From the IMG/VR virus record IMGVR_UViG_2579778952_000008: a DNA stretch of 5,697 bases; one strand, given 5' to 3'. Source of the stretch: a virus (Duplodnaviria > Heunggongvirae > Uroviricota > Caudoviricetes). Of this stretch, positions 1-5,697 are shown in pieces. The stretch's first letter is position 1. Each line of letters starts with the position of its first letter. The notes beneath the pieces are model-generated. The model saw only the letters and a program-made list of their open reading frames with translations, was not told where the DNA came from and did no database searches. Both the position numbers and the translations under genes were made by a program.

Positions 1-918
1 TTACGCCTTCTTTATATCCTCCATAATTCCAGAGTGGGACATATTTGGGACATTATCACCAAAAATGTCGTCTATTTTCCTCGCATGCTCTGTCAAATGA
101 TTAGGCGCAAGGTGAGCATACCTACGAACCATTTCTATGGACTCCCATCCGCCCATTTCCTGAAGCACTGATAATGGGACGCCTGACTGAATCAGCCAGC
201 TTGCCCAGGTGTGTCTGAGGTCATGGAAACGGAAATCTTCAATTCCTGCACGACGACAAGCTGATAGCCATGATGTCTTGCTGTCGATGCGCATCTTCCT
301 GACCGCAGGCGTTGATGTTCCATCTGCTCGCTTAGCCGCCTTGGTATGTACAAACACCCATTTGTGATGCTTGCCTATTTGATCACGCAACACTTTACAG
401 GCGGTATCGTTCAGCGCCACACCAATGGCGCGGTTTGATTTGCTCTCTTCTGGATTCACCCAGGCAACTCGTCGCTGCATGTCGATTTGTTGCCATTCCA
501 GATTTATGATGTTCGACTTTCTCAGACCAGTTGCCAGCGCAAACTTGACGACAGATTTCAGTGGTTCGGGGCACTCATCAATAAGGCGTTTTGCTTCCTC
601 CTTTTCCAGCCATCTGACTCGCTTGTTTCTGACCGCTGGTATCTTGATGACAGGCGCTTTTTCCAGCCACTTCCAGTCGCGTTCTGCAGCACGGAGAATG
701 GCCTTTATCATGGCAAGATGCTTTGCCTTTGTCTGAGTTGATACTGGCTTTGGTTCATAAACAGGCGGTTGCCGTGTTGTGAGGTAAGGAGATTTTGGCT
801 TGGTTGGATCTTTACGTGTTGCCTGTAGGCGGCCTGTTCGTATCCAGTTGGTGGCGGTTGGTCTGGATATCTTAAGAAACTGACAGGCCTCATCGAGTGT
901 GAGGCTGTATGATTCCAT
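1..918 (-). CDS. int: Phage tyrosine integrase (305 aa from ATG at 918; ORF track extends to a GTG at 948). Catalytic domain complete, N-terminal region atypical.
   Basis: Translation shows tyrosine-recombinase catalytic motifs: ATGLRKSN (box I Arg), [10 protein letters not shown] (H-x-x-R), [15 protein letters not shown] (catalytic Tyr). Strong SD GAGGT 5 nt upstream of the ATG at 918 (sequence GAGGTAACCATGG on minus strand). N-terminal 35 aa ([26 protein letters not shown]) resemble an Xis/AlpA-type HTH. The C-terminal two-thirds resemble the P22/DLP12 IntD family as I recall it. Stop codon is at bases 1-3. Confidence 0.85.
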
Positions 919-1168
919 GGTTACCTCTGCTTTTTGAACGCATGTCACGTAACTTCTTAATGTGTTCTGCCGTTTCGATCTCTTCTGCTATCCGATCTGC
1001 ATCAGCTTTATTCACAGGTTCAAAGTCATGATTAAAGCGGAACATGCTGGCGATACATGTTCTGCCTTTTCGGATGTAGTGAACTTTGTTGTGGGTAGAA
1101 CGCAGGATTTTGCAGGGAGTGCCGTGGTGGTCGACGTACCAGGTGTTAGGAAAAATGATTCTGAACAT
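890..1168 (-). CDS. 92-aa small basic protein overlapping the int start by 29 nt; possible excisionase-position gene or integrase arm-binding-like domain (function unresolved).
   Basis: ATG at 1168 preceded by strong SD (GAGGTG, 5-nt spacer). Motif IFPNTWY near the N-terminus resembles the PPNLY motif of the lambda Int arm-binding domain. The 29-nt overlap with the int start mimics the xis/int overlap in lambda. Confidence 0.5.
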
Positions 1169-1215
1169 TTTTACACCTCAGTTGGACGATGTTGAAATTT
1201 GCTGCTTTGAGGCCA

Positions 1216-1434
1216 TCACAGTCCCCATTGTTTGTTCTTAAGTTCGATCTCCTCCTGGCAACTCGCACAAGTTCGACAACCCTGAACAGCCAGGCGTCTT
1301 CGCTCATCTATCGGATCGCCACACTCACAACAATGAGTTGCGGATACAGTCTGGTAGTTCAGACGACGCATTTTTATTGCTGTATTGCGCTGTAATTCTT
1401 CGATTTCTGATGCTGAATCAATGATGTCTGCCAT
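1216..1434 (-). CDS. TraR/DksA-family C4 zinc-finger protein (72 aa)
   Basis: CxxC-x14-CxxC motif (C35/C38 ... C53/C56) in a 72-aa protein, size and motif spacing like F-plasmid TraR and phage DksA-like proteins. Weak SD (AGGGA) upstream. Confidence 0.7.
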   Translation of the reverse strand: MADIIDSASEIEELQRNTAIKMRRLNYQTVSATHCCECGDPIDERRRLAVQGCRTCASCQEEIELKNKQWGL

Positions 1435-1487
1435 CTTTCATTAATCCCTGAATTGTTGGTTAATACGCTTGAGGGTAAATGCGAATA

Positions 1488-1510
1488 ATAAAAAAGGAGC
1501 CTGTAGCTCC
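1488..1510 (-). terminator. Putative rho-independent terminator for leftward transcription, downstream of the 93-aa ORF
   Basis: GGAGC (1496-1500) / 5-nt loop / GCTCC (1506-1510) hairpin. On the minus-strand RNA the stem is followed by UUUUUUAUUAUU (plus-strand A-run 1488-1495). Confidence 0.4.
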
Positions 1511-1532
1511 CTGATGATTTTGCTTTTCATGT

Positions 1533-1814
1533 TCACCGTTCCTTAAAGACGCCGTTCAACATGCCGATCGCCAGGCTTAAATGAGTCGGTGTGAATCCCA
1601 TCAGCGTTACCGTTTCGCGGTGCTTCTTTAGTACGCTACGGCAAATGTCATCGACGTTTTTATCCGGAAAATGCTGTCTGGCTTTTTTGATTTCAGAATT
1701 AGCCTGACGGGCAATGCTGCGAAGGGCGTTTTCTTGCTGAGGTGTCATTGAACAAGCCCCATGTCGGCAAGCATAAGCACACAGAATATGAAGCCCGCTG
1801 CCAGAAAAATGCAT
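1533..1814 (-). CDS. 93-aa hypothetical exo-xis-region protein with N-terminal Cys/His cluster; same length and relative position as lambda ea8.5 (identity unverified)
   Basis: ORF starts 10 nt after the orf63 stop (tight packing suggests coupling). N-terminal C12, C16, H18, C21 cluster, then a predicted helical 70-aa region. An alternative internal start (MTPQQ, ATG at 1746-1748) would give 71 aa. Confidence 0.5.
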   Translation of the reverse strand: MHFSGSGLHILCAYACRHGACSMTPQQENALRSIARQANSEIKKARQHFPDKNVDDICRSVLKKHRETVTLMGFTPTHLSLAIGMLNGVFKER

Positions 1815-1824
1815 TCAGTGGTTG

Positions 1825-2016
1825 TCATACCTGGTCTCTCTCATCTGCTTCTGCTTTCGCCACCATCATTTCCAGCTTTTGTGAAAGGGATGTGGCTAAC
1901 GTATGAAATTCTTCGTCTGTTTCTACTGGTATTGGCACAAACCTGACTCCAATTTGAGCAAGGCTATGTGCCATCTCAATACTCGTTCTTAACTCAACAG
2001 GAGATGCTTTGTGCAT
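1825..2016 (-). CDS. Lambda orf63 homolog (exo-xis region protein, 63 aa)
   Basis: Protein [23 protein letters not shown]... matches my recollection of lambda orf63 almost residue for residue. Same length, same 28-nt overlap with orf60a as in lambda. SD GGGAGG upstream. Confidence 0.8.
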   Translation of the reverse strand: MHKASPVELRTSIEMAHSLAQIGVRFVPIPVETDEEFHTLATSLSQKLEMMVAKAEADERDQV

Positions 2017-2171
2017 ACCGCCTCCCGTTTATTATTTATCTTCTCAGCCAGCCGCTGTGCTTTCAGGGGATTTCTGATAACAGAAAGGCCGGGAAATACC
2101 CAGCCTCGCTTTGTAACGGAGTAGACGAAAGTGATCGCGCCTACCCGGATATTATCGTGAGGATGCGTCAT
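1989..2171 (-). CDS. Lambda orf60a homolog (60 aa from second in-frame ATG; ORF track gives 62 aa from 2177)
   Basis: Protein [24 protein letters not shown]... matches recalled lambda orf60a. The ATG at 2169-2171 overlaps the exo stop codon (ATGA), as in lambda. Confidence 0.8.
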
Positions 2172-2848
2172 CGCCATTGCTCCCCAAATACAAAACCAAT
2201 TTCAGCCAGTGCCTCGTCCATTTTTTCGATGAACTCCGGCACCATCTCGTCAAAACTCGCCATGTACTTTTCATTCCGCTCAATCACGACATAATGCAGG
2301 CCTTCACGCTTCATGCGCGGGTCATAGTTGGCAAAGTACCAGGCATCTTTTCGCGTCACCCACATGCTGTACTGCACCTGGGCCATGTAAGCCGATTTTA
2401 TTGCCTCGAAACCACCGAGCCGGAATTTCATGAAATCCCGGGAGGTAAACGGGCATTTCAGTTCAAGGCCGTTGCCGTCACTGCATAAACCATCGGGAGA
2501 GCAGGCGGTGCGCATACTTTCGTCGCGATAGATGATCGGGGATTCAGTAATATTCACGCCGGAAGTGAATTCAAACAGGGTTCTGGCGTCGTTCTCGTAC
2601 TGTTTTCCCCAGGCCAGCGCCTTAGCATTAACTTCCGGAGCCACACCGGTGCAAACCTCAGCCAGCAGGGTGTGGAAGTAGGACATTTTCATGTCAGGCC
2701 ACTTCTTTCCTGAGCGGGGCTTTGCTATCACGTTGTGAACTTCTGAAGCGGTGATGACGCCGAGCCGTAATTTGTGCCATGCATCATCCCCCTGTTCGAC
2801 AGCTCTCACGTCGATCCCGGTACGCTGCAGGATAATGTCCGGTATCAT
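2168..2848 (-). CDS. exo: Lambda-type exonuclease (Red-alpha, Exo), apparently intact, 226 aa
   Basis: 226-aa translation is near-identical to lambda Exo as I recall it ([45 protein letters not shown]...GFVFGEQWR). SD AAGGTGG upstream. ATGA overlap with the upstream bet stop. Confidence 0.95.
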
Positions 2849-3039
2849 GCTGCCACCTTCTGCTCAGTGGCTTTCTGTTTCAGGAATCCAAGAGCTTTCA
2901 CTGCTTCGGCCTGTGTCAGTTCTGACGATGCGCGAATGTCGCGGCGAAATATCTGGGAACAGAGCGGCAATAAGTCGTCATCCCATGTTTTATCCAGGGC
3001 GATCAGCAGAGTGTTAATCTCCTGCATGGTTTCATCGTT
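2845..3039 (-). pseudogene. bet: bet (Red-beta) 3' fragment encoding only the C-terminal ~64 aa; 5' part deleted
   Basis: Minus-strand translation ...[64 protein letters not shown] matches the lambda Beta C-terminus. Upstream of residue N (base 3039) the ORF has no Bet similarity and is antisense to P. Confidence 0.85.
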
Positions 3040-3040
3040 A

Positions 3041-3643
3041 CAGCAGGTAGCGCAGATCATCAATGGTGTGTTCAGCCAGTTACTGGCAACTTTCCCGGCG
3101 AGCCTGGCTAACCGTGACCAGAATGAACTGAACGAAATCCGCCGCCAGTGGGTTCTGGCTTTCCGGGAAAACGGGATCACCACAATGGAACAGGTTAACG
3201 CTGGAATGCGCGTAGCCCGTCGGCAGAATCGACCATTTCTGCCATCACCCGGGCAGTTTGTTGCATGGTGCCGGGAAGAAGCATCCGTTATCGCCGGACT
3301 GCCAAACGTCAGCGAGCTGGTTGATATGGTTTACGAGTATTGCCGGAAGCGAGGCCTGTATCCGGATGCGGAGTCTTATCCGTGGAAATCAAACGCGCAC
3401 TACTGGCTGGTTACCAACCTGTATCAGAACATGCGGGCCAATGCGCTTACTGATGCGGAATTACGCCGTAAGGCCGCAGATGAGCTTGTCCATATGACTG
3501 CGAGAATTAACCGTGGTGAGGCGATCCCTGAACCAGTAAAACAACTTCCTGTTATGGGCGGTAGACCTCTAAATCGTGCACAGGCTCTGGCGAAGATCGC
3601 AGAAATTAAAGCTAAGTTCGGACTGAAAGGAGCAAGTGTATGA
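3041..3643 (+). pseudogene. P: Replication protein P, 5'-truncated (roughly residues 33-233 of lambda P retained); peaD-like
   Basis: Plus-strand translation from QQVAQIINGVFSQLLATFPASLANRDQNE... to ...AKIAEIKAKFGLKGASV matches lambda P C-terminal ~200 aa. No native start; the frame upstream of 3041 is antisense to bet/exo. ATGA overlap with ren at 3640-3643, as in lambda. Confidence 0.85.
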
Positions 3644-3942
3644 CGGGCAAAGAGGCAATTATTCATTACCTGGGGACGCATAAGAGCTTCTGTGCACAGG
3701 ACGTTGCCGCGGTAACAGGCGCAACCGTAACCAGCATAAATCAGGCTGCGGCTAAAATGGCGCGGGCAGGAATCCTGGTCGTTGATGGTAAGGTCTGGCG
3801 AACGGTGTATTACCGGTTCGCTACCAGAGAAGAACGGGAAGGAAAGGTGAGCACGAATCTGATTTTTAAGGAGTGTCGCCAGAGTGCCGCGATGAAACGC
3901 GTATTGAGGGTATATAAAAGAACATCAATGGGTACACAATGA
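3640..3942 (+). CDS. ren: Ren-like protein (100 aa) with divergent C-terminal ~10 aa; likely renD-type remnant
   Basis: MTGKEAIIHYLGTH...VWRTVYYRFATREEREGK...KECRQSAAMKRVL matches lambda Ren through about residue 90, then diverges (RVYKRTSMGTQ). The divergence point coincides with a shift to AT-rich DNA. Confidence 0.75.
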   Translation: MTGKEAIIHYLGTHKSFCAQDVAAVTGATVTSINQAAAKMARAGILVVDGKVWRTVYYRFATREEREGKVSTNLIFKECRQSAAMKRVLRVYKRTSMGTQ

Positions 3943-4009
3943 TGAAACAGGTGAGTTGATTTCAAACTGTAGTACAATTCTCTCCAGTTTGAACAGGAAA
4001 GAATATGCT

Positions 4010-4342
4010 ATGAACCCTTATATTTATCTTGGTGGTGCAATACTTGCAGAGGTCATTGGTACAACCTTAATGAAGTTTTCAGAAGGTTTTACACGGTTAT
4101 GGCCATCTGTTGGTACAATTATTTGTTATTGTGCATCATTCTGGTTATTAGCTCAGACGCTGGCTTATATTCCTACAGGGATTGCTTATGCTATCTGGTC
4201 AGGAGTCGGTATTGTCCTGATTAGCTTACTGTCATGGGGATTTTTCGGCCAACGGCTGGACCTGCCAGCCATTATAGGCATGATGTTGATTTGTGCCGGT
4301 GTGTTGGTTATTAATTTATTGTCACGAAGCACACCACATTAA
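4010..4342 (+). CDS. emrE: EmrE small multidrug resistance (SMR) efflux transporter, 110 aa
   Basis: Translation MNPYIYLGGAILAEVIGTTLMKFSEGFTRLWPSVGTIICYCASFWLLAQTLAYIPTGIAYAIWSGVGIVLISLLSWGFFGQRLDLPAIIGMMLICAGVL.INLLSRSTPH matches E. coli EmrE including the essential Glu14. SD AGGA about 11 nt upstream. The ORF-track N-terminal extension (from 3956) is not supported. Confidence 0.95.
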   Translation: MNPYIYLGGAILAEVIGTTLMKFSEGFTRLWPSVGTIICYCASFWLLAQTLAYIPTGIAYAIWSGVGIVLISLLSWGFFGQRLDLPAIIGMMLICAGVLVINLLSRSTPH

Positions 4343-4373
4343 AAATAATTTGTTTCTAAACGACTAAAATATG

Positions 4374-4412
4374 GAGGCTCTTATATTTATATGAGCCTCG
4401 TTTTATGCTTTT
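4374..4412 (+). terminator. Putative rho-independent terminator downstream of emrE
   Basis: GAGGCTC (4374-4380) / 12-nt loop / GAGCCTC (4393-4399) perfect 7-bp inverted repeat, followed by GTTTTATGCTTTTTG. Confidence 0.5.
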
Positions 4413-4598
4413 TGTTAATGTCTTTATTTTTTTATGTATTCTTTTGTGCTTTCAAGATTATGGCGTAAGAAAATTGCAATACGATTATTGTTGTATATTC
4501 AAGATAATGTGACCTTAATTGTCTTTTTAAATAAAAATTAAACAAAAATTATATCTCACCACTAAGGTTTATAGAAGCATACGTTAGCAGGTGTCACC

Positions 4599-4944
4599 AT
4601 GAAAAAAGCCATAGCATATATGCGATTTTCATCACCAGGTCAGATGTCTGGCGACTCATTAAACCGACAGAGAAGACTTATTGCTGAATGGTTAAAGGTA
4701 AATAGTGATTATTATCTTGATACCATAACATATGAAGATTTAGGATTAAGTGCATTCAAAGGAAAGCATGCACAATCAGGAGCTTTTTCGGAATTTTTAG
4801 ATGCTATAGAGCATGGTTATATATTGCCAGGAACTACATTGTTAGTTGAAAGTCTGGACAGACTTTCAAGAGAAAAAGTCGGTGAAGCGATTGAGCGTCT
4901 GAAATTGATTTTGAATCACGGTATTGATGTTATAACTCTTTGCG
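4599..4944 (+). pseudogene. ybcK: Serine recombinase (resolvase/invertase-type N-terminal catalytic domain; ybcK-like), truncated after ~115 codons by IS1 insertion
   Basis: MKKAIAYMRFSSPGQ...LLVESLDRLSR is a serine-recombinase catalytic-domain signature. The reading frame runs into the IS1 left end and stops 2 codons later (..VITLCG*). Matches my recollection of the K-12 DLP12 YbcK N-terminus. Confidence 0.8.
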
Positions 4945-4967
4945 GGTGATGCTGCCAACTTACTGAT
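4945..4967 (+). repeat. IS1 left terminal inverted repeat (IRL)
   Basis: GGTGATGCTGCCAACTTACTGAT, the canonical IS1 terminus. Confidence 0.8.
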
Positions 4968-4999
4968 TTAGTGTATGATGGTGTTTTTGAGGTGCTCCA

Positions 5000-5275
5000 G
5001 TGGCTTCTGTTTCTATCAGCTGTCCCTCCTGTTCAGCTACTGACGGGGTGGTGCGTAACGGCAAAAGCACCGCCGGACATCAGCGCTATCTCTGCTCTCA
5101 CTGCCGTAAAACATGGCAACTGCAGTTCACTTACACCGCTTCTCAACCCGGTACGCACCAGAAAATCATTGATATGGCCATGAATGGCGTTGGATGCCGG
5201 GCAACCGCCCGCATTATGGGCGTTGGCCTCAACACGATTTTCCGCCATTTAAAAAACTCAGGCCGCAGTCGGTAA
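5000..5275 (+). CDS. insA: IS1 InsA (transposition inhibitor / N-terminal part of transposase), 91 aa, GTG start
   Basis: Translation [40 protein letters not shown]... matches IS1 InsA. Confidence 0.95.
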
Positions 5276-5697
5276 CCTCGCGCATACAGCCGGGCAGTGA
5301 CGTCATCGTCTGCGCGGAAATGGACGAACAGTGGGGATACGTCGGGGCTAAATCGCGCCAGCGCTGGCTGTTTTACGCGTATGACAGGCTCCGGAAGACG
5401 GTTGTTGCGCACGTATTCGGTGAACGCACTATGGCGACGCTGGGGCGTCTTATGAGCCTGCTGTCACCCTTTGACGTGGTGATATGGATGACGGATGGCT
5501 GGCCGCTGTATGAATCCCGCCTGAAGGGAAAGCTGCACGTAATCAGCAAGCGATATACGCAGCGAATTGAGCGGCATAACCTGAATCTGAGGCAGCACCT
5601 GGCACGGCTGGGACGGAAGTCGCTGTCGTTCTCAAAATCGGTGGAGCTGCATGACAAAGTCATCGGGCATTATCTGAACATAAAACACTATCAATAA
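5194..5697 (+). CDS. insB: IS1 InsB reading frame (expressed as InsAB' transposase via -1 frameshift)
   Basis: Translation ...[36 protein letters not shown]...HYLNIKHYQ matches IS1 InsB. The frame is -1 relative to insA. Confidence 0.9.
5251..5257 (+). promoter_or_regulatory. IS1 programmed -1 ribosomal frameshift site (A6C slippery motif) in the insA/insB overlap
   Basis: AAAAAAC at 5251-5257 inside the insA-insB overlap; a known IS1 mechanism. Confidence 0.8.

Follow-up and report, generated by a model that had tools for sequence, protein, structure and literature searches.

The closest described counterpart of the locus is the DLP12 prophage of E. coli K-12, which carries the genes renD-emrE-ybcK-ybcL-ybcM-ybcN. 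The emrE-ybcK region of DLP12 has long been annotated in E. coli, and the finding as such is already known. Accessory genes of this kind fall under the lambdoid-phage moron and nin-region mosaic concept, which is reportedly due to Hendrix and Juhala. Large serine recombinases are known for the elements that they move, and include Ccr of SCCmec, TnpX of Tn4451 and the phiC31-type integrases. Prophages of the P2 and P4 type harbour hotspots of anti-phage systems (PMC9122126), and PD-lambda-1 has been described as a defence system (PMC9519451).

The window (the whole stretch of 5,697 nucleotides that was analysed) finds its best genomic match in E. coli E200086, with 100% identity across positions 1-4816, and the counterpart region of that genome adjoins tRNA-Arg. 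The open reading frame table and Pfam scan identify a tyrosine integrase (1-948, minus strand), followed in layout order by small lambdoid early genes, a lambda-type exonuclease (2168-2848, minus strand) and a chimeric ORF that ends in replication protein P (3038-3643 for the P portion). The prophage carries int and exo, together with ren and a fusion of bet and P fragments; this bet-P fusion implies that the immunity and origin region has been deleted. The annotation of E200086 reads integrase (partial) through exonuclease, Bet (partial), P (partial), ren, emrE, ylcJ (frameshifted) and recombinase::IS1, and continues beyond this point with a P22AR-C protein, a hypothetical protein, ybcN, ninE, ybcO, rusA, ylcG, quuD, a porin, essD and rrrD.

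The window is a defective DLP12-type lambdoid prophage of E. coli, situated beside tRNA-Arg. With DLP12 it shares the order ren-emrE-ylcJ-ybcK and the tRNA-Arg attachment region, and it has likewise lost the immunity and replication region. It differs in the interruption of ybcK by IS1 and the frameshift of ylcJ, and in that the closest relative of the window has an antirepressor fragment and bstA after ybcK, not ybcL-ybcM. Phage PhiR34_1 is 99.3% identical to window positions 3600-4944, and ren and ybcK of phage Perceval were named as DLP12 homologues by its annotators. The current annotation is unchanged by this analysis, the window being an ordinary, decayed copy.

The ren gene (3640-3942, plus strand) is of the renD type and encodes 100 amino acids; it matches PHROG 142 (Ren-like, 6e-42) and is annotated as 'protein ren' in E200086. 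Alignment reveals near-identity to lambda, SfI, PhiR26_1 and PhiR30_1 until 3906, so that the gene is lambda-like through codon 89; divergence sets in at 3907, which is ren codon 90 and the start of an AT-rich replacement tail, with a residual match to the same phages (GGTATAT) extending up to 3915. Among 156 matching phage records, the match stops at 3915 in 144. The interval 3907-3915 is therefore a left mosaic junction, at which similarity to all other lambdoid phages ends and the GC content drops. The GC fraction is 0.495 in 1-3915, 0.355 in 3916-4944 and 0.538 in the IS1 part (4945-5697), and a likelihood change point of GC falls at 3910. GC3 amounts to 0.35 for emrE and 0.24 for the ybcK fragment, and lies between 0.36 and 0.62 in the nine flanking prophage genes, of which just two short ORFs (0.36 and 0.40) are below 0.48. 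The preliminary description had proposed that similarity to lambda ren is lost near codon 90 and that the DNA switches there from about 50% GC to an AT-rich composition, and both points hold (breakpoint 3907-3915; 49.5% in 1-3915 versus 35.5% in 3916-4944); the GC and codon-usage check that it had called for confirms that both GC and GC3 of the segment differ from the flanking phage DNA. The module span that it had given, 3908-4944, begins within this breakpoint interval; its right edge is the IS1 junction, described below.

Phage genomes are compositionally patchy, and on this ground alone the GC shift could be read as a chance fluctuation within ordinary phage DNA. The drop of 14 points, however, takes the segment under every flank window of equal size (the minimum among 1029-nt windows inside 1-3915 is 0.451), and it lies within 5 bp of the homology breakpoint. 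We consider this reading already refuted, with a probability that is close to nil.

The first gene of the AT-rich segment is emrE (4010-4342, plus strand), which encodes a small multidrug resistance (SMR) efflux pump of 110 amino acids (Pfam PF00893, E=2.2e-35, residues 4-95). The EmrE family is found in PHROG 1395, in the moron category. The protein of the window is 100% identical to EmrE of phages PhiR34_1 and Perceval, and 98-100% identical to proteins named EmrE by their sources. The membrane-embedded Glu14 of SMR pumps is essential for coupling, and this residue is present in the translation (MNPYIYLGGAILAE14V). By virtue of its identity with EmrE of the K-12 DLP12-type phages PhiR34_1 and Perceval, the product would be predicted to act as a drug/proton antiporter, and it may be expressed in the lysogen.

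A Shine-Dalgarno sequence (AGGAA) is positioned 10 nt upstream of the emrE ATG, and a 9-bp perfect inverted repeat read from the sequence (TTCAAACTG/CAGTTTGAA; 3961-3994, plus strand) directly precedes this ribosome-binding site. The repeat lies inside the block that is common to the emrE copy of the fliE island described below. Downstream of the gene, folding indicates a terminator-like hairpin (GGAGGCTC...GAGCCTC, then a T-run; 4374-4412, plus strand; -14 kcal/mol, z=-3.44), with the stem at 4374-4399 followed by GTTTTATGCTTTT; a simple terminator scan did not report it. These signals bear out the earlier statement that emrE possesses its own Shine-Dalgarno sequence and terminator. Like the lambdoid morons, emrE is an additional gene set among conserved phage genes; it has a deviant composition (segment GC 0.355 versus 0.495; emrE GC3 0.35), a terminator-like hairpin of its own and a variable presence, being carried by 12 phages and absent from siblings, in that the 144 others match only to 3915. 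It differs from them in that a promoter scan found no sigma-70 consensus promoter 5' of the gene. The composition and the phage comparison together agree with the description of emrE as a moron in a compositionally foreign segment that replaces the DNA after ren codon 90.

Two further genes follow in the AT-rich segment. The small ORF ylcJ (4391-4541, plus strand) is frameshifted, and E200086, whose sequence is identical across this stretch, has it annotated as a frameshifted pseudogene; the intact form of YlcJ has 49 amino acids and matches Pfam PF23688 (2e-35). A 5' fragment of ybcK comprising 115 codons (4599-4944, plus strand) encodes the start of a large serine recombinase, and the serine recombinase gene of the preliminary description is thereby substantiated, by a Pfam match of the N-terminal Resolvase domain (PF00239, E=8.9e-16) and the catalytic motif YMRFSSPGQ. 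Residues R9 and S11 are invariant across 16 YbcK homologues. A full-length relative of 508 amino acids contains the Resolvase, Recombinase (PF07508, 2e-14) and Zn_ribbon_recom (PF13408, 8e-8) domains; the window copy, truncated by IS1 at codon 115, lacks the latter two. The best PHROG match of YbcK is the integrase family phrog_95 (4e-120). Neither YbcK nor YlcJ matched any of the PADLOC defence models.

The insertion sequence occupies 4945-5697 (plus strand), corresponding to positions 1-753 of the 768 of IS1, and is cut by the end of the window, so that its right end and the target duplication fall beyond the analysed stretch. Its left inverted repeat (GGTGATGCTGCC) begins at 4945, where the left terminal repeat sequence is GGTGATGCTGCCAACTTACTGAT. 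The IS1 frames insA (5000-5275, plus strand) and insB (5194-5697, plus strand) are both recognised (Pfam InsA and DDE_Tnp_IS1; PF03811, PF12759 and PF03400), and the element is 98.9% identical to the annotated IS1A of E200086. Since IS1 interrupts ybcK after codon 115, position 4944 is the junction with the insertion sequence and not the end of the AT-rich module. With ybcK cut and ylcJ frameshifted, the recombinase is dead in the window strain. The exact ybcK::IS1 junction is absent from 5,426 complete genomes; in two complete genomes an IS1-family element abuts ybcK at about the equivalent place.

In relatives of the window, the AT-rich island (GC about 0.27-0.47) extends some 2.9 kb past 4944, IS1 excluded, and ends upstream of ybcN. 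In the closest relative this DNA holds the rest of ybcK, the antirepressor fragment and the BstA abortive-infection gene. Pairwise comparison of phages that share the flanking genes places the left break at L001 9307-9316 (window 3906-3915) and the right break at L001 13878-13880 in all of them, the latter at a conserved promoter-like sequence (TTGATT-17-CATAAT) that is followed by a CCGGAG...CTCCGG hairpin upstream of ybcN. The comparison with lambdoid phages lacking emrE, proposed earlier as a means of defining the boundaries, thus yields fixed breaks on both sides. The cargo enclosed between them varies: emrE-ylcJ-ybcK with ybcL-ybcM in PhiR34_1 (K-12 type), with the antirepressor fragment and BstA (PADLOC, 4e-121) in E200086, and with an alpha/beta hydrolase in Perceval, 4A7 and others; PD-lambda-1 (PADLOC, 2e-198) and rha in PhiR26_1; an acyltransferase and a lipoprotein in PhiR30_1; and further gene sets in PhiR5_1 and IdasGreatGrand. 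On these alignments, the interval from ren to ybcN is a hypervariable accessory slot with fixed junctions. Cargo lacking a recombinase joins at these points too, and the break at ren codon 90 therefore serves this phage family as a general mosaic boundary.

The interval resembles the P2/P4 hotspots in being one fixed interval with alternative cargo that includes defence genes (PD-lambda-1, BstA), and differs in that the cargo of the window is an efflux pump and a recombinase, with no defence gene inside the window. A non-exhaustive search found no published account of the ren-ybcN interval as a hotspot, and a partial, non-exhaustive search of the literature on ybcK or a ren/ninB hotspot returned nothing specific.

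The position of emrE is probably explained by ordinary lambdoid mosaicism in the hypervariable slot of a DLP12-type prophage, and not by YbcK. The prophage enters the accessory slot of its family at ren codon 90, and the slot extends to the conserved promoter-like sequence upstream of ybcN, with AT-rich and presumably horizontally acquired cargo filling the space between. Related phages may swap this cargo through recombination in or close to the conserved flanks. The cargo seen here consists of at least two separable modules: emrE, an SMR efflux moron complete in itself, which brings its own ribosome-binding site and terminator, and ylcJ with ybcK, which are present or absent at a palindromic AT-rich site over the emrE stop codon. 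The insertion of IS1 after ybcK codon 115 and the frameshift in ylcJ have inactivated the recombinase in the window strain.

The preliminary description had instead suggested that the recombinase delivered emrE as cargo, and such an account would make emrE a passenger of a small integrative element, with YbcK inserting an emrE-ybcK unit downstream of ren. The two genes are both AT-rich. All phage genomes of the collection with one of them (12 records) have the other next to it, and the pair also stands together in about 1,400 E. coli genomes. This adjacency counts against the mosaicism account, and it implies that a shared history of the pair within the lineage is real; the truncated antirepressor after ybcK in the closest relative might reflect a past illegitimate event that brought in emrE-ylcJ-ybcK as a single block. 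YbcK, moreover, has the full architecture of a large serine recombinase with conserved catalytic residues, sharing the Resolvase, Recombinase and zinc-ribbon domains with Ccr of SCCmec, TnpX and the phiC31-type integrases. Unlike in those systems, the search around emrE and ybcK revealed no element ends; the phages that carry the pair also have a tyrosine integrase of their own. The recombinase repeats expected to flank the module were sought, and no direct or inverted repeats or att-like sites were detected around emrE and ybcK, either in window 3700-5100 or in the islands of L001 and L005. (An inverted repeat of 15-16 nt between ybcK codon 34 and its stop was considered and rejected as being at chance level for AT-rich DNA.) Both junctions are, furthermore, common to recombinase-free cargo and so are not element-specific, and the window copy of ybcK is itself broken by IS1.

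The separability of the two genes is seen directly in genomes that carry emrE and lack ybcK. A 600-bp empty-junction query composed of the emrE 3' end, the core at its stop codon and the hydrolase flank was designed from Perceval, with CATTAAAAATAATTTCTTTTGAATCG as the predicted empty junction sequence. Two genomes cover at least 80% of the 600 bp, and the one inspected, isolate F467, matches in a single piece with 600 of 600 bases covered at 98.8% identity. Its prophage carries cI-like, O, P, ren, emrE, hydrolase and ybcN through to the lysis genes, and has no ybcK; emrE, directly followed by the hydrolase gene, therefore occupies the same position without any recombinase, which is the very finding that the preliminary description had given as a refutation of the proposed delivery.

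On a wider scale, a query with the module alone (window 3916-4944) detects emrE in 3,695 of 5,426 complete E. coli genomes (68%). At least 80% of the query is covered in 1,398 of these, whereas 2,280 records, at 90-95% identity, match window 3933-4350 only, that is, emrE and its immediate flanks. Two genomes of this latter band were inspected, ATCC 25922 and 19SZHZ886Rt, and in both the arrangement is fliE | emrE-ybcL-ybcM-(porin) | yedK, with neither ybcK nor phage structural genes in the island. In comparison to a K-12-type phage, the fliE-yedK island is composed of three pieces: the first runs from the last 9 bp of ren through emrE; the second, separated from it by a gap of 4 bp, begins 155 bp before ybcL and reaches the ybcN start codon; and the third extends from the quuD 3' end into the porin gene. 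The island lacks exactly 2,083 bp, comprising the terminator, ylcJ, ybcK and 309 bp beyond. Judged from this make-up, it is a stripped lambdoid remnant in which accessory genes have been kept and the phage core genes are gone. A partial, limited search found no papers on the fliE-yedK emrE island. The roughly 2,280 genomes with emrE-ybcL-ybcM and no ybcK thus speak against delivery by the recombinase in the same way as F467.

Relatives of YbcK beyond E. coli point in the same direction. In the phage collection, YbcK at 95% identity or above occurs only in the 12 emrE-bearing coliphages, and the next matches are at 30% or below. In a large protein collection, relatives at 40-61% identity are found in Atlantibacter, Yersinia, Erwinia, Ewingella, Kluyvera, Citrobacter and Pantoea; those considered for their context span 37-61% identity. 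No SMR gene is present within 10 kb of YbcK relatives outside E. coli (0 of 85 loci). Taken together, the evidence argues against YbcK as the vehicle of emrE; its delivery of the gene is highly improbable, and it is not needed for the presence of emrE after ren.

The genomic contexts of these homologues are diverse. In L014 the gene lies in the nin region of a lambdoid prophage, beside SIR2, KGG and DinI genes. The homologues of Atlantibacter (at ssrA), Ewingella and Erwinia (at lepA) directly follow tail-fibre and Caudo_TAP genes, at a prophage end beside host genes; that of Yersinia also comes after tail-fibre and Caudo_TAP genes, separated from them by an autotransporter gene, and abuts a P2-like prophage. 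The homologue of Citrobacter koseri is located in a plasmid/ICE-like region. A role of the homologues at prophage ends as the main integrase is disfavoured by their location at the tail-fibre end, convergent with ssrA in Atlantibacter, for example.

The separable unit is ylcJ-ybcK. This block measures about 2.07 kb and, where it occurs, occupies a palindromic site over the emrE stop codon; other genomes lack it there. On its left it is always bounded by the core of this site, which in the window is an AT-only near-palindrome, CATTAAAAATAATTT(GTTTCT), at 4337-4357, overlapping the stop codon. Empty and filled states occur at the same site in the background emrE|ybcL-ybcM (L103 versus L005) and in the background emrE|hydrolase (L105 versus L002). 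In Perceval, repeat finding identifies a 38-nt imperfect direct repeat around ylcJ-ybcK, with copies at 7735 and 9808 spaced 2,073 bp apart, and the 15-bp identical core of this repeat, CATTAAAAATAATTT, sits within a 21-bp palindrome. The alignments of the filled (Perceval) and empty (F467) sites overlap by 38 nt and share the identical core. The 15-bp core and 38-nt repeat of the Perceval-type phages are accordingly a candidate recombination site for YbcK. A partial, limited search found no papers on the ylcJ-ybcK indel.

It is conceivable, though rather unlikely, that ylcJ-ybcK is an autonomous mini-element of about 2.07 kb, in which a solo large serine recombinase inserts site-specifically at the core over the emrE stop; emrE would then be a neighbour of the target site and not cargo. 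The occurrence of two distinct cargo backgrounds both filled and empty at one site is in keeping with this, as is the Perceval-type direct repeat with its core inside a palindrome. YbcK-family genes are, in addition, isolated in accessory slots of unrelated prophages, and the DNA common between their contexts is restricted to the gene and 62-120 bp upstream, as for a gene moving alone. The right-hand side fits less well. Between ybcK and the right junction, each of the three filled types has DNA of its own, with 268 bp after the ybcK stop in the K-12 type and a 241-bp antirepressor fragment in the Perceval type; the K-12-type right-hand core is degenerate, and the closest relative is without any right-hand core copy. 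The sites of large serine recombinases normally share just 2-8 bp, compared with the 15-bp core seen here. No shared boundary motif or palindrome was found around YbcK homologues of other genera. An unequal illegitimate crossover of two emrE-bearing phages would leave a duplication of this kind as well, and a comparable partial-gene duplication beside the YbcK homologue of L014 looks like ordinary unequal recombination. The block may thus be a self-mobile mini-element or a product of unequal illegitimate crossovers between emrE-bearing phages, and the present comparisons do not decide between the two. For function in the window the matter is moot, given the IS1 insertion in ybcK and the frameshift in ylcJ. 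Were the mini-element real, the YbcK family would represent recombinase genes hopping between the accessory slots of enterobacterial prophages, such as nin regions and tail-fibre ends.

The ordinary mosaicism favoured here for the position of emrE presents this textbook SMR pump as a phage-borne moron in two forms, one in lambdoid prophages beside ybcK and the other in the domesticated fliE-yedK island without ybcK. This bears on the spread of efflux genes by temperate phages, several of them available as phage isolates (for example Perceval, 4A7 and PhiR34_1), and the ren-to-ybcN interval emerges as a cargo hotspot that also receives the defence genes PD-lambda-1 and BstA. In Citrobacter, Salmonella and Enterobacter, relatives of EmrE at 73-85% identity lie in other small islands, alongside fragments of tyrosine integrases, IS elements or toxin-antitoxin genes; the genes called within 6 kb of these relatives include no serine recombinase of the Resolvase family. 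Carriage of the module by plasmids was considered and rejected: every matching record filed under plasmids is of chromosome size, and what small plasmids carry are genes of the qacG type, at 68% identity.

The 289-aa open reading frame at window positions 2774-3643 encodes a Bet/P chimera in which a C-terminal fragment of Bet is joined to a P gene with a truncated N-terminus (2845-3643). The fusion implies that the immunity region and the replication origin have been deleted in their entirety, and the prophage is therefore defective.

Directly 5' of the emrE ribosome-binding site lies a perfect 9-bp inverted repeat, TTCAAACTG/CAGTTTGAA (window 3961-3994), which may act as a regulatory hairpin or operator. 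The repeat is contained in a segment that is 92% identical, where it aligns, to the emrE copy found between fliE and yedK in other E. coli strains, a copy that defines a band of matches in approximately 2,280 complete genomes at 90-95% identity. The gene content of this fliE-yedK island is limited to emrE, ybcL and ybcM (L103, from ATCC 25922, and L104, from 19SZHZ886Rt, 9000-12900), plus an nmpC-like porin gene in the case of ATCC 25922. The island looks like a lambdoid prophage reduced to its accessory genes.

Downstream of emrE, a small ORF, ylcJ (window 4391-4541), would encode a very hydrophobic product of 49 aa if intact, and carries a frameshift within a T-run in the strain of the window. 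The large serine recombinase gene ybcK has been struck by IS1 more than once, independently. The insertion lies at 4944/4945 in the window; in the closest relative, E. coli E200086, IS1 lies at the equivalent of window 4816 and is accompanied by a 9-bp duplication, AGAGCATGG. In NCCP12480 and O15_8X, ybcK is abutted by an IS1-family element near window 4944. The E200086-type island continues 3' of ybcK with a C-terminal piece of an Ant/Rha antirepressor, followed by an intact gene for the abortive-infection protein BstA (PADLOC 3.6e-121; PHROG 6287); this segment (L001 12415-13866) is DNA of the closest relative, past the point where the window has IS1.

All cargo types share the right junction upstream of ybcN, a conserved promoter-like TTGATT-17-CATAAT sequence with a CCGGAG..CTCCGG hairpin (E200086 region, L001 13879-13940; also in L002, L005-L009 and L105). 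The sibling phages PhiR26_1 and IdasGreatGrand carry an extra copy of approximately 100 bp of this junction sequence within their cargo.

YbcK homologues were observed in other settings. In the lambdoid nin region of L014, genes for a YbcK homologue, KGG and DinI lie between two copies of a 229-bp direct repeat (7622-7853 and 10602-10830; 82.5% identical) corresponding to the 5'-terminal part of a DUF1367 gene. A TraD/MobA plasmid-like region of Citrobacter koseri (L099 5145-8530) contains a YbcK homologue oriented divergently to a gene for 555 aa with a faint match to Shufflon_N, hinting at a possible connection to DNA inversion.
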